Source: Stramenopiles sp. TOSAG23-2
Lineage: Eukaryota
Length of the DNA: 46,291 nt
Direction: 5' to 3'
Assembly (NCBI GenBank): GCA_900128395.1
Contig: LT649281.1
Coordinates: forward strand, 1-46,291
Numbering within the stretch: position 1 is the stretch's first letter; each line of letters opens with the position of its first letter. Both the position numbers and the translations under genes were made by a program. A model generated the notes under the pieces. It was not told the DNA's origin and did not search any database. It saw only the letters and a program-made list of their open reading frames with translations. Below are positions 3,544 to 46,291 of the stretch, in pieces.

Positions 3544-3821
3544 TGGAATAATACCCCATCACTACTCAGGAAACCCCGCTATCACTAGCTTTGAATTCAT
3601 TTCTAGCTTCACTTTTGGGTTGATTTAGTTTTTGTTTCATCCACCAGTTCCGTATATTTTTGTTTCGTTTTCCCCCTATGTTCCAAATATTTTTGGAATA
3701 ATACCCCATCACTAGCTTTGAATTCATTTCTAGATTAACTTTTGGGTTGATTTAGTTTTTGTTTCATCCACCAGTTCCGTATATTTTTGTTTCGTTTCCC
3801 CCCTATGTTCCAAATATTTTT
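3544..3821. repeat. Diverged tandem duplication of the 3' end of the GT25 gene (two variants)
   Basis: tggaataataccccatcacta...ttccaaatattttt occurs twice (about 3544-3694 and 3694-3821). The copies differ by a 23-bp indel and a few substitutions, one of them at the stop codon. Confidence 0.9.
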
Positions 3822-4904
3822 GCTTGGTTTTATCCCCGTGTATATATTTTTTTTCATCTTCCATGTATTTTTTTTTATTTGTTTATTCGACGACTTAAAT
3901 GGTACCCAGTTCCATAAGTTTTTTATTTGTTTACTCGACCACCAATCAGGTGGGAAATCGTAGTTCGCCAAAGTGATGTTATTCTCATTATAATACGACA
4001 CCCAATTTGTATAAGAACCATCTGTTGATGATATTTTTTTAATATCCGCGGTGATTAGCATTGGGTTTAATACTACACTTTTAAATCCGGGAGTTTCTTG
4101 AAATTCCTCGACAAATATATCATCTATTGGTCTATCATCATATTCAAATGATAAAATAATATCATATATACTTTCATCGACACCTACTGCAAAATTACCA
4201 TATGCTCGTATAGCAGGAATGTTATGAGGCGATATAATTTCTTTCCTCCAATGATAGGAAGAGCCTAAATACAACAGATTCCAATGTCTATATTTCCTAT
4301 GCATAATTTGATCATATTGTCTGTGAAATGCATATTTAAAACGTTTTAAGAAAACTAAATCATCTTCACATATTAATATTTTTTTATAATGGTGTTTCTT
4401 TGCATCTTTAACAATATTCATTTGTGTTTGTTTTAGACCAACAGCCCCCTTATTACCAGATCTTAACATCGTTATATTAATTACATCGGGTATTCCGTCG
4501 ATTGCCTGAAAAATTTGGTAGGATATGCCATATTTTTTAAACTTCCTCTGCATTATTTCAAGATTACGTTTATCTTTTTTTCTATTGATTAAATATACTT
4601 GATCGAACACATTATTGACTGTATAATCTTGATTCGTATGGAGGTAGTCGTGCCGCAGGTAAAACTTCACCGGTTGGGTAACGGTTTGCGGAACAATTTC
4701 AACGTTATTGTCATTATAACTGAATGAATCATGTACTATTAATGGCGGTTGATGAAATGCATCTAAATTTCTATTGTCTGTTTTTGAATGTCTAACATGA
4801 TACATGACGTACATATAGTACATCAGGATATCTATCAAGATTTGTTGTATTACTAACGTACACAATAATATTGATACTACACGTGACAGACCCAAACATT
4901 TCAT
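3735..4904 (-). CDS. Glycosyltransferase family 25 (Lex2/LgtB/COLGALT-like), type II membrane protein
   Basis: N-terminal hydrophobic anchor, VYLINRKKDKRN, FQAIDG, ILICEDD, WNLLYLG and RPIDD motifs. Confidence 0.85.
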   Translation of the reverse strand: MKCLGLSRVVSILLCTLVIQQILIDILMYYMYVMYHVRHSKTDNRNLDAFHQPPLIVHDSFSYNDNNVEIVPQTVTQPVKFYLRHDYLHTNQDYTVNNVFDQVYLINRKKDKRNLEIMQRKFKKYGISYQIFQAIDGIPDVINITMLRSGNKGAVGLKQTQMNIVKDAKKHHYKKILICEDDLVFLKRFKYAFHRQYDQIMHRKYRHWNLLYLGSSYHWRKEIISPHNIPAIRAYGNFAVGVDESIYDIILSFEYDDRPIDDIFVEEFQETPGFKSVVLNPMLITADIKKISSTDGSYTNWVSYYNENNITLANYDFPPDWWSSKQIKNLWNWVPFKSSNKQIKKNTWKMKKNIYTGIKPSKNIWNIGGKRNKNIRNWWMKQKLNQPKS

Positions 4905-21130: not shown

Positions 21131-21305
21131 ATTATAATTTTAATAATTATAATTATATATATTTCTTCACACTTCACTTCACATACATATATAGTTAAAG
21201 CAGAGAGGTCTGGTTAAAGGGAGAATATGATATTTTGAATTGATATAGAAATATATATAGGGATATTGTAGTTGGTAGTATATAAATATATATATATATT
21301 AATTA

Positions 21306-22924
21306 TTATATCTGTATATACATCCCTTTCACTTGTTGATACCCGTTTGATCCATCTTTTTTATATTGTTTTATAGCTCTTAATTGTGATTTCATATTAT
21401 CACTAAGTTGATTAGTAGATAGCCACAATGTCTTTAATGTATTGTTTGTTTTTAATCCATCAATAATACTTTGTATTCCACTAATATTATTATTATCTAG
21501 GTACAATACCTTTAATGTCTTGTTTGATTTTAATGCTTCACCAATACTTTGTACATCAGTATTTATATTGTTTTATAGCTCTTAATTGTGATTTCATATT
21601 ATCACTAAGTTGATTAGTAGATAGCCACAATGTCTTTAATGTATTGTTTGTTTTTAATCCATCAATAATACTTTGTATTCCACCATCATCAGTAATATTG
21701 TTATGACCTAGGTACAATTCCTTTAATGTATTGTTTGTTTTTAATCCTTCACCAATACTTTGTACATCAGTAATATTATTACCTTGTAGGTTCAATATCT
21801 TTAACGTATTGTTTGCTTTTAATCCTTCACCAATACTTTGTACATCAGTAATATTATTATTGTCTAGGTACAATGTTGTTAATGTATTGTTTGTTTTTAA
21901 TCCATCAATAATACTTTGTATTCCACCATCATCAGTAATATTGTTATGATATAGGCGCAATTCCTTTAATGTACTGTTTGTTTTTAATCCTTCACCAATA
22001 CTTTGTACATCAGTAATTCTATTACCTTGTAGGGACAATTTCTCTAATGTATTGTTTGTTTTTAATCCTTCACCAATACTTTGTACATCAGTAATATTAT
22101 TATTATCTAGGTACAATACCTTTAATGTCTTGTTTGATTTTAATGCTTCACCAATACTTTGTACATCAGTAATATTATTTTGACCTAGGTCCAATGATGT
22201 TAATATATTGTTTGTTTTTAACAATTCACCAATAGCTGATACATCATCACCATTAACACAAGAGAACGATGCACACCAACATGGACAAATAAACAACAAT
22301 CTACAACAGAGCATATCCCACCACCAATATTGTAATAATAACCAGTTATATTCTTTTCGTGAACAAGTAAGTGTTATTGGACGTTCATCATTTAAAAGCG
22401 TATACGTTGAATCATCTAAATTGGTAACTTCATGTTCAAAACTATCTGAATCTCCATCAATTATATTCTTTTCGTGAACAAGTAAGTGTTATTGGACGTT
22501 CATCATTTAAAAGCGTATACGTTGAATCATCTAAATTGGTAACTTCATGTTCAAAACTATCTGAATCTCCATCAACACGAATACTTTCTATCATATCACC
22601 AACTTTCATTCCATTTGATTTTGCATAGTCCATAGTTGATGAATGAATTGATTTTATAGATACGTCATACTCCACCTCATTTTGATTCTCAATGTCACTG
22701 CTATTTTTATCGAAACCAGTAGAACTACTACTACTACTACTACTACTTATAGGATTAGGTGTAGCGTTATTATTTATTCTTACTTGTTTCTGAAATTCAC
22801 CAATTATTTCATGTTCTGGTAAAAATGTGATAGTATAACGCTTTTCCTTGACCGCAGGGCCCAAGCAGCGACGGAAAGGCGTGGTGAAACAATGCCAAAA
22901 GCAACATAGAGCAACAGCACCCAT
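21306..22924 (-). CDS. Cys/Trp-rich, probably membrane-associated N-terminus plus RNI-like LRR array with C-cap (one gene split by two local duplications)
   Basis: Removing one 115-bp duplicate joins ORF 22457..22924 in frame (SRKEYN-WLLQYWWWDMLCC) to ORF 21556..22314. The C-cap QLRAIKQYK is present twice and continues as KDGSNGYQQVKGMYIQI* to 21306. Confidence 0.8.
21360..22240 (-). repeat. Tandem LRR-coding array of 78-bp (26 aa) and 84-bp (28 aa) units
   Basis: Unit consensus VQSIGEGLKTNNTLxxLxLxxNNITD with variant DGGIQSIIDGLKTNNT. Eight units in ORF 21556..22314, plus an extra unit and cap at 21360-21561. Confidence 0.95.
22346..22575. repeat. Perfect 115-bp tandem duplication
   Basis: ttatattcttttcgtgaac...tctccatcaa at 22346-22460 and 22461-22575. 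It breaks the reading frame of the LRR gene. Confidence 0.95.
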
Positions 22925-40633: not shown

Positions 40634-40861
40634 CTAGCACGCACACACCATTAGTAATGCTATTCCATGCTAAGTTCAAAATTGGCCGGAGCAGACGACA
40701 CACAGCACACAGCATGGGCTAAAATACATCAATAAATTATATCGATACTAGCACGCACACACCATTAGTAATGCTATTCCATGCTAAGTTCAAAATTGGC
40801 CGGAGCAGACGACACACAGCACACAGCATGGGCTAAAATACATCAATAAATTATATCGATA
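40634..40861. repeat. Perfect 114-bp tandem duplication
   Basis: ctagcacgcacacacc...ttatatcgata at 40634-40747 and 40748-40861. Confidence 0.95.
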
Positions 40862-41250
40862 CACTATTAGAAAATGGGGTCTCACTATTTCCAGTAGCAT
40901 GACATAGCATTACATCGTATTATATAGGTAATCAATAAGTAATTAGTCTACATAAAGTATAAGTGGCCTTAAATAATAACAAGTGCTATATATATACTAA
41001 TACTAAATAGGCTAAATTTAAGGTTTTTATCGATTTGTGTTAAAATCCACTTTATAATAATAGATGGACACATTACAAATAAACCAAACACCAAACATAT
41101 ATATATACATCATGAATTGACCTTAGCGAATCACATTCTTCCATCGAATTCATTCAAACATAACCATATATATATATATATATTTTATAGTTTCATTCTA
41201 GAACAGGATACACTGTAGAAATCGACATAATATATTTATTGTGTCTTCTT

Positions 41251-44838: not shown

Positions 44839-45316
44839 ATTTTTGGAAATATGTATGTGTGTGTATTTGGATTATTATATTATTTCGGACCAATGTGCCA
44901 ATTTGTTATTATAGTAAATTGAAGGATAATTTAGTTTTTGTACAATTACAAAATGTGTGTATGTAATGTATATGATATATATATATATATATATATAACC
45001 GCTGACACGTGTGTAAATGATATTTTGATAACTGATGAATATGTTGATACCAATTGGTTATATATTATATAATATATATATATTTATCTTGTTGAAGAAA
45101 ACTGTACTTCATTCACCAATTCCCCACTTCGATATTATATAGTAGAGGGGAGGAGACGAGAGGGGGCTTCATTCAACAACAATCATCAATTGAGAGTTTA
45201 AGTTGTTCAAAATCATCAACAAGTCGTCAAATTGAATGAATGAATGTCAGGACAGAGATAGAGATATACATGATGCAAGAATATACATATATATATATAA
45301 ACATACGATTATTACA

Positions 45317-46291
45317 ATGACATCATTAGTTACGGACGATAATAATAATACAACAACCACTAGCACCACAACTACAACGACGAACCAAAATGATATGGAA
45401 AGTTATGACAATAAAAATAATAATGTGAATACTATTAACATTATTAATACAATGATGAATAATCATCTATCTGATTTAACACAAAAAGCAAAGAAACAAG
45501 CAATAGAGCGGATAGTCGCCATGGCAAATTTTGAACTAACCAAACTTGATAAAAAGGTTGTCAGTGAACCACAACATTTTGAAGATTTACCTAATATATT
45601 ACAAATATGTAGTGGAACAGATGAAAAGCCAGGTCTTATATCATATTTTGAAGACGATATAGTGGCAGTGATAAATATGTTTGGAAAATCAAGTAAACAA
45701 TTTCTTGAATATGATCCCTTGCGTCGTAAATATTATAAAATTGTATTACAATCAAAATATGGTGGTGTAGCACCTGATAAATCTGTTACATATTTAAGTG
45801 CATTACATGGTAAAATTGATGTGGTAAACTATCTATTAGAAAAAGGTGGTGATTGGAATGACAAAATTGAAGGTCTTGTGAACAGGTTGGAGGTTTATTA
45901 TGAAGTAAATTTTAGTAGTGATGCCATTGATTTGGAAGACAAGAACATCACGGATGAGGATGTACAAATTATTGGTGAATTATTAAAAACAAACAATACA
46001 ATAAAGAAATTGGACCTACATGATAATAATATTACTGATGTACAAAGTATTGGTGAAGGATTAAAAACAAACAATACATTAGAGATATTGTACCTACAGA
46101 ATAATAATATTACTGATGATAGTGGAATACAAAGTATTATTGATGGTACCTAATTGATAATAATATTACTGATGTACAAAGTATTGGTGAAGGATTAAAA
46201 ACAAACAATACATTAAAGGAATTGTACCTAGATGATAATAATAATATTACTGATGTACAAAGTATTGGTGAAGGATTAAAAACAAACAAGA
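45317..46291 (+). CDS. Soluble protein: possible F-box-like segment, single ankyrin-like repeat and LRR array (partial; frameshift at about 46147)
   Basis: FEDLPNILQIC (weak F-box-like) and SVTYLSALHGKIDVVNYLLEKGGD (ankyrin-like). From about 45925 the LRR units have the same framework as 21360-22240. After a junction at 46147 the array continues in another frame to the window end. Confidence 0.75.

Follow-up and report, generated by a model that had tools for sequence, protein, structure and literature searches.

The leucine-rich repeats (LRRs) of plant NOD-like receptors (NLRs) and Cf-type proteins, like those of lamprey variable lymphocyte receptors (VLRs), carry hypervariable, solvent-exposed x residues of an xxLxLxx motif on a conserved scaffold; VLRs are assembled somatically from donor cassettes, and plant NLRs are built on an NB-ARC core. 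The repeats of bacterial transcription activator-like (TAL) effectors are nearly identical in their DNA, each with two hypervariable codons, and have a different fold and DNA as the ligand. The standard example of repeat domains held almost identical by concerted evolution around a few hypervariable binding positions comes from the NLR-like genes of fungi. There, the repeats of NWD and HNWD genes are near-identical within and between paralogs and are shuffled (PMC4986451); the sections of that survey drawn on here describe few positively selected positions, lying on the binding surface, and combinatorial N-terminal domains, and list WD, ANK and TPR as the repeats with high internal conservation, with no LRR among them (PMC4986451). 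For the LRR-ROCO proteins of Ectocarpus, the corresponding part of the published account describes positive selection at concave-face positions and a unit number varied by shuffling (PMC3341825). Here we describe an LRR gene on the minus strand of contig LT649281.1 (Stramenopiles sp. TOSAG23-2, assembly GCA_900128395.1), of which the whole 46,291-nt stretch analysed is referred to as the window. Its array of eight repeat units combines nearly frozen framework DNA with hypervariable codons on the predicted binding face, and probably serves as the ligand-binding domain in one protein of a large modular protist family shaped by concerted evolution and diversifying selection. No description of this family was found in the literature searched; one article there, on LRR and ANK proteins of bacteria (PMC9418006), has no bearing on it.

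The LRR open reading frame (ORF; 21556..22314, minus strand, 252 aa) contains eight L..L.L..N units, which form an array at 21562..22245 (minus strand) in which six internal units lie between an N-cap and a C-cap unit. The LxxLxLxxN spacing follows a 26/26/26/29-aa pattern (78/78/87 nt) in 8/8 units, and Tandem Repeats Finder detects both a 78-nt period (6.9 copies, 80% matches) and a 243-nt super-repeat that is present twice (2.2 copies, 91% matches). An earlier note on this DNA, made from the letters alone, had described framework codons that are held while x codons vary at bases 1 and 2, and the codon alignment of the eight units bears this out. The three Leu codons are TTA, TTG and CTA in 8/8 units; the central x reads GAC, TAC, TCC, CGC, TAC, AAC, TAC and TGG by unit (NNC in seven, with TGG in the cap), the preceding x reads TCA, GTA, AAA, GAA, ACA, ATA, GAA and ACA (NNA in all eight), and the last x reads CAA, AAT, GGT, CAT, AAT, GGT, CAT and ACT (NNT in 7/8). 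Synonymous differences among the units are confined to 3 of 29 aligned columns (ACG/ACA, GAT/GAC and AAT/AAC). Mean pairwise unit identity is 0.80 at the nucleotide and 0.65 at the amino-acid level, with framework nucleotides at 0.875 and x-codon nucleotides at 0.50. The two copies of the 243-nt, three-unit block (21601..22086, minus strand; 90% identity) differ at 25 nt in 16 codons, with 15 nonsynonymous changes and one synonymous change, in agreement with the duplication described earlier. A 36-nt framework string occurs nine times in the window at ≤2 mismatches, compared with 0 in 100 shuffles. As a separate observation, antisense ORFs are open across the arrays, at 21731-21949 (plus strand) in the window and on the equivalent strand of two related loci (L010 and L021), encoding the same short peptide repeats; these are most likely a mechanical consequence of the repeat.

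The same contrast between framework and x codons is found family-wide. Among 8000 scored candidates, 352 database relatives of the LRR ORF were found at E ≤ 0.001, mostly on short marine metagenome contigs and at 65-80% identity, and some of them carry ANK or kinase domains. One exact 36-nt framework string retrieved 25 public metagenome-contig loci (L001-L025, with five record-name prefixes), and a protein-level motif blind to codon choice called 116 units in these loci and the window, 112 of them unique, so that the units are no mosaic of a few invariant genes. Across the 112 unique units framework codons are fixed at 91-97%: TTA in 108/112 units at Leu column 0, TTG in 109/112 at Leu column +3, CTA in 103/112 at Leu column +5, TTA in 102/112 at Leu column -6, AAC in 102/112 at Asn column -3 and AAT in 106/112 at Asn column +8; a framework AAA codon is kept in 105/112. 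Variation is not spread evenly over the unit, since amino-acid entropy is 2.0-3.6 bits at columns +1, +2, +4, +6 and +7 versus 0-1.75 bits elsewhere. The third base at these five columns is mostly G, A, C, T and T, respectively (majority share 0.73-0.91), and where two units share a residue their codons mismatch at a rate of 0.05-0.13 at +2, +4, +6 and +7 (column +1 excluded) versus 0.079 in the framework. The third base of x codons is thus as quiet as synonymous sites, which argues that the local mutation rate is not raised and that selection acts on the residue. An LRR protein with the source label Rickettsiaceae bacterium metagenome-assembled genome (P0113) also matches, at 40% identity, and is possibly a repeat protein of eukaryotic type in an intracellular bacterium.

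Estimates by the NG86 counting method place nonsynonymous divergence at x sites, dN(x), well above synonymous divergence of the framework, dS(framework). The values are 0.87 versus 0.19 for all unique units (0.13 for columns outside the search string), 0.84 versus 0.17-0.26 when string-carrying units are left out, and 0.77-0.88 versus 0.07-0.11 in the window only. A per-site count resembling SLAC was made on a FastTree phylogeny of the 112 units and expressed as dN_i/dS_global with a binomial p-value, the Leu and Asn anchor columns being invariant by ascertainment. Columns +4 (ratio 5.3, p = 7.5e-7), +6 (5.3, p = 1e-4) and +2 (3.9, p = 1e-3) stand out, while the values for +1 (2.7, p = 0.96) and +7 (1.9, p = 0.81) are not significant. 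The expectation of the earlier note that site-wise dN/dS at x positions exceeds 1 therefore holds at +2, +4 and +6.

Between paralogs, synonymous divergence in the LRR framework does not track that found elsewhere in the gene, as the gene conversion favoured in the earlier note would predict. The proportion of synonymous differences (pS) is 0.386 in the N-terminal part versus 0.059 in the LRR framework for L015/L021, 0.454 versus 0.038 for L006/L016 and 0.171 versus 0.029 for L007/L012. Corresponding values are 0.020 and 0.041 for L001/L009 and 0.098 and 0.131 for the window gene and L010, and the direction is reversed in the near-identical pair L008/L014 (0.015 versus 0.123), in which the identity profile falls at the LRR and the proportion of nonsynonymous differences (pN) at x sites is 0.45. 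Across pairs, x-site pN is 0.29-0.70 in five of six. LRR divergence is thus approximately uniform whatever the age of the gene, which fits exchange between paralogs, and the decoupling indicates concerted evolution together with diversifying selection. Because conversion that keeps the flanking Leu codons uniform would also erase neutral diversity at x, the diversity seen at x must be selected. Chimeric assembly within arrays could make exchange look greater than it is; the difference between framework and N-terminus is independent of unit order. Unit number in the paralogs ranges from 2 to 9, with alleles indistinguishable from paralogs or assembly paths.

The array has the fold of ribonuclease inhibitor (RI)/NLR-type (RNI-like) LRRs, as judged from core spacing, profile scores and a strand-helix solenoid. 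Pfam LRR_6 matches at 78.6 bits (cut-off 23.4) and LRR_4 at 87.5 bits (cut-off 27; 4.6e-25). An AlphaFold2 model from a 39-sequence alignment (pLDDT 89.5, pTM 0.88) contains eight strand-helix pairs in an alternating solenoid, with columns +2 to +4 forming a beta-strand in every unit; residues 1-30, which belong to the linker preceding the array, have low pLDDT (45-73). The best structural matches are the LRRs of NOD2, RI and NLRP proteins (PDB 5irl/5irn, 9dh3 and 1a4y), with TMq of 0.79-0.82, root-mean-square deviations of 2.0-2.9 and 24-32% identity. The x residues of an LRR strand point to the concave, ligand-binding side. The same orientation is given in the part of the Ectocarpus account drawn on here (PMC3341825).

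The array belongs to a cassette whose parts are common to the loci. A linker leads into an N-cap, 2-9 LRR units and a C-cap; a conserved tail follows, and some 25 nt past the stop codon lies a short motif. The C-terminal tail (..KDGSNGYQQVKGM..) lies with its stop codon at 21306..21359 (minus strand) in the window gene, and the same tail is found at 19 cassette ends across the loci and the window. The cassette-specific motif of the 3' untranslated region (UTR; 21250..21290, minus strand) includes a 19-mer at 21264-21282 (minus strand) that is the sole match in the window at ≤3 mismatches. Its exact 15-mer core occurs once in the window and once each in 11/25 loci (L002, L004, L007, L008, L011, L012, L018, L019, L021, L023 and L025), and ten of these 11 positions coincide with the aligned tail, the position in L004 not having been compared with the tail. 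The 3' flank of the window gene has no Rfam match; the motif may be a regulatory element or an exchange boundary.

In the paralogs this cassette is joined to diverse partner domains, many of immune or cell-death type. Three single ORFs combine TIR_2, a ResIII/DEAD helicase and the cassette (L021 279-3914, L015 4017-8735 and L022 5720-10258), another combines CHAT, a ResIII/Schlafen-group-3 (SLFN-g3) helicase and the cassette (L016 1-3552), and one has ResIII only before the cassette (L006 568-4833). Elsewhere the cassette is joined to a protein kinase (L024 3-2936, minus strand), a SidE_PDE-like domain (L020 4140-6395, minus strand), an XK-related membrane domain (L011 3623-5326, plus strand), an MLKL_N-like segment that scores 26.3 bits, under the cut-off of 27 (L023 13025-13723, minus strand), and ANK in L010 (minus strand). 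The domain search of the loci returned ResIII, DEAD and SLFN-g3 helicase domains and no NACHT or NB-ARC in the cassette paralogs; judged from the order of domains, the layout of the TIR/CHAT-helicase-LRR ORFs is NLR-like without NACHT or NB-ARC. Searches of the paralogs with PADLOC gave nothing for three and, for L022, one weak PDC-S66 match outside the TIR and helicase domains, and a sequence search of the PDB returned no solved relative of the helicase part. Two further features of these loci were noted: a Peptidase_S74-like stretch occurs in L015 and L022, and L025 (3518-5563, plus strand) has two complete cassettes, linker to tail, in tandem and in one frame, preceded by a multi-pass membrane region and RI-type LRRs of a different kind.

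The window gene as assembled (21306..22924, minus strand) consists of an N-terminal domain, a linker, the eight LRR units and the tail, with its frame broken by two exact duplications. Its N-terminal region of ~155 aa (22461..22924, minus strand) matches no Pfam family and starts with MG..CC at 22924; Atlas feature scores of 0.88-0.90 to PDZ clusters are a weak lead towards a PDZ-like domain. Translations place a Cys/Trp-rich hydrophobic linker between this domain and the LRR (22246..22345, minus strand), and the linker is conserved in the paralog L010, which also matches the N-terminus (52-444, 91% DNA identity; pS 0.098, pN 0.078). This lipid-anchor-like start, the PDZ-like domain and the Cys/Trp-rich segment suggest a membrane-tethered adaptor or sensor. 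A separate feature of L010 (1-1773, plus strand) is that its LRR units are degenerate with Cys-rich insertions between them and that its frame continues past the tail for ~250 aa without a Pfam family.

We propose that unequal crossing-over and gene conversion, within and between paralogs, would keep framework DNA near uniform, synonymous sites included, and change the number of units, while diversifying selection would preserve and accelerate changes on the solvent-exposed face of the beta-strand, at +2, +4 and +6 and less so at +1 and +7. Each array would then present a different binding surface. The cassettes of paralogs would couple such surfaces to outputs such as TIR, CHAT protease, kinase, MLKL-like, SidE-like phosphodiesterase (PDE) and XK-like domains, and that of the window gene to its lipid-anchor-like N-terminus, PDZ-like domain and Cys/Trp-rich segment. 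These features lead us to expect that the arrays would bind ligands, that the family would have an immune or non-self role and that the window protein would be anchored to a membrane. A broader scheme, which we offer tentatively and think less probable than its contrary, is innate non-self recognition by a swappable, concertedly evolving LRR cassette with its own 3' UTR element, mounted on TIR-helicase, CHAT-helicase, MLKL-like/kinase, SidE-like and membrane proteins in place of STAND nucleoside triphosphatases (NTPases). Exchange of cassettes, possibly guided by the linker and the 3' motif, would make specificities faster than point mutation, and the system would be a helicase-centred analogue of NLRs independent of those of plants, animals and fungi.

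The assembly state of the gene bears on how far these patterns can be trusted. One copy of an exact 115-nt tandem duplication lies at 22346..22460 and the second, 100% identical, at 22461-22575, breaking the frame; a 1007-nt contig (depth 209) from run X1, a likely source run, joins 22345 to 22461 and skips the 115 nt. A 202-nt segment (21360..21561) combines exact copies of two stretches of the array, 21562-21683 (122 nt, C-cap) and 22092-22171 (80 nt, unit 2). It truncates the tail and breaks the frame, with the intact, family-typical tail directly after it (21359-21306), and its removal restores both frame and tail. Read through without the 115-nt and 202-nt copies, the gene is 1302 nt long and encodes 433 aa plus a stop, with no internal stop and eight LRR motifs. 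We consider both duplications probable assembly artefacts, with independent contig evidence for the 115-nt case only; the 202-nt segment may alternatively be a second haplotype path, maybe a shorter one. Of the range given for the array in the earlier note, 21360-22240, the codon pattern of the array stands and the portion 21360-21561 is probably such an artefact. Logan contigs on the array are pieces of 50-80 nt with mostly multi-place fits; some bins lack coverage, which carries no weight, summed depths are no measure of copy number, and RNA-library contigs on 22303-22402 and 22791-22858 are not proof of transcription. Other tandem duplications in the window, of about two copies each, lie at 948-1102 (77 nt, exact), 3581-3822 (127 nt, 97% identical) and 40634-40862 (114 nt, exact) and are probably unmerged assembly overlaps. 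We caution that arrays of this kind, when assembled from short reads, carry artefacts that break the frame.

Mis-assembly of a multi-copy repeat could in principle have produced the array and its contrast between framework and x codons. The exact duplications adjoining the array, the lack of the 115-nt copy in X1's own contig, the further duplications elsewhere in the window and the fit of 159/240 X1 contigs to two places are all what such an origin would leave. We nevertheless find this explanation highly doubtful, because the 78-nt unit is shorter than a read, so that the sets of x codons within units are real; because 112/116 units are unique and the pattern recurs in 25 contigs with five record-name prefixes; because metagenome and metatranscriptome contigs map on the array; and because neither dN/dS nor the framework statistics are affected by the order of units. 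It is unlikely, too, that the array reflects only a recent burst, in which one recent ancestral unit multiplied under positive selection alone with no conversion or exchange. Low synonymous diversity throughout the units, the frozen third base of x codons and the 243-nt block duplication would fit such a history, but a single-date duplication of whole genes does not predict divergence that is decoupled along the gene, with N-terminal pS of 0.17-0.45 against 0.03-0.06 for the LRR framework of the same pairs and the reverse in one near-identical pair.

Another possibility is that the LRR has an ordinary structural or scaffolding role, with x positions that vary simply for lack of constraint and take no part in recognition. 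Other free framework columns are indeed near neutral (0.7-1.17), the window gene has no signalling domain and some homologues are named RanGAP by their sources. This account is nonetheless improbable in our judgement, as dN at x sites is 4- to 7-fold above synonymous divergence, the conversion that homogenises flanking Leu codons would have erased neutral x diversity along with it, and the partner domains of paralogs are of immune or cell-death type. Most improbable of all is a programmed diversification aimed at the x codons, whether like that of diversity-generating retroelements (DGRs), deaminase-like or by somatic cassette assembly. The NNC/NNT/NNA look of x codons and the modular cassette with its private 3' motif invite this idea, and the earlier note had raised DGR mutagenesis and set it aside. 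That judgement agrees with our counts: framework adenines are fixed (AAA 105/112, AAC 102/112, and AAT likewise), changes from A make up 181/391 (46%) at x versus 128/308 (42%) in the framework, and x codons vary at their third base no more than the framework does at synonymous sites. As the note had said, no reverse transcriptase was found in the window, nor was any recombinase or transposase family, in a search that took in 21 ORFs of ≥120 aa and did not extend to shorter ones or to the genome beyond. All 12 window units (12/12) belong to two genes, none standing alone as a donor, and no minor array variants were reported, though contigs drop rare variants.

Several observations weigh against the interpretation we prefer, a ligand-binding array under concerted evolution and diversifying selection. 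Every sequence used derives from short-read assembly. In the window gene the frame is broken by two exact duplications, and frames also break inside the arrays of L021, L015, L007 and the second family member in the window, so that unit order, unit number and some pairings of N-terminus and array may be chimeric. Two pairs depart from the expected pattern, L015/L022 with little decoupling (N-terminal pS 0.320, LRR framework 0.213) and L001/L009 with only 1/30 x codons different. Free framework columns have per-site ratios of 0.2-1.17, that is, about 1 rather than below, and the per-site p-values are rough because 78-nt units yield a weak tree and have probably recombined, although the effect is large. 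Retrieval by an exact string biases columns -14 to -3; yet columns -2 to +11 and units without the pattern agree. Finally, Pfam finds no NTPase or known effector domain in the window gene, and thus neither the central NACHT/NB-ARC nor the N-terminal effector domain of an NLR. The recognition repertoire suggested in the earlier note gains support from the immune-type partners of the paralogs; the window gene itself lacks a signalling NTPase.

A second family member lies at the window end (45236..46291, plus strand), with a different N-terminus, the same framework DNA and weak LRR matches. The 36-nt framework string matches it exactly at 46037, 46171 and 46252, and its frame breaks near 46150, truncating a unit right by the window end. 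The remaining gene content includes a separase (peptidase C50), IQ, FHA, ANK, FWWh and DUF2465, in long uninterrupted ORFs. Four small runs, all from one study and labelled as organisms, contain the window sequence, as do marine metagenomes and metatranscriptomes of other studies; the unicellular eukaryote supposed in the earlier note fits both the genes (separase, IQ, ANK and FHA) and these marine runs. As a side observation on the neighbourhood, L021 4681-6709 aligns with window 25288-23285 as a syntenic flank, 94% identical, on a contig of a related assembly; next to this flank L021 has its TIR-helicase-LRR gene where the window has the separase, so the neighbourhoods differ.

Little is known of how ocean microeukaryotes defend themselves against viruses and prey-borne microbes. 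Should the arrays be confirmed, the family would be a candidate immune or allorecognition repertoire for abundant members of this group, and an independent case of modular receptor assembly.

Set beside described systems, the array shares the alpha/beta horseshoe type with the LRR domains of NOD2, NLRP3 and RI and differs in its 26/29-aa units and in the lack of NACHT in the window gene; to our knowledge, near-identical unit DNA is not a feature of the LRRs of those three proteins. The hypervariability of its x residues resembles that of plant NLR and Cf-type LRRs and lamprey VLRs, and no donor cassettes were seen in the window. Near-identical repeat DNA with hypervariable codons recalls TAL-effector repeats, from which fold, ligand and origin all differ. 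Like the LRR-ROCO proteins of Ectocarpus, as far as the published details considered here extend, it is a protist or algal LRR family with selection on the concave face and a variable unit number; unlike them, with their 72-nt LRR per exon and ROC-COR partner (PMC3341825), its eight units are contiguous in one ORF, and domain searches found no ROC-COR in the window gene or paralogs. The closest analogue, on the sections of the fungal survey drawn on here, is the NWD-type repeat of fungi, the likeness lying in concerted evolution, selected surface positions and combinatorial N-terminal domains. Positive selection at few binding-face positions and concerted evolution are both found here, subject to the assembly caveats above, while the unit amino-acid identity of 0.65 falls under the fungal threshold of >85% over at least 100 aa (PMC4986451; the fungal pipeline was not run). 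Fungal NLRs as described there have a NACHT or NB-ARC core, whereas paralogs of the present family have ResIII/DEAD/SLFN-type helicases and the window gene has no NTPase. In this uncultured marine protist, a repeat regime of the fungal kind is seen on LRRs of the NLR type, and in paralogs these are coupled to cell-death and immune-type domains through helicase cores rather than NACHT or NB-ARC.

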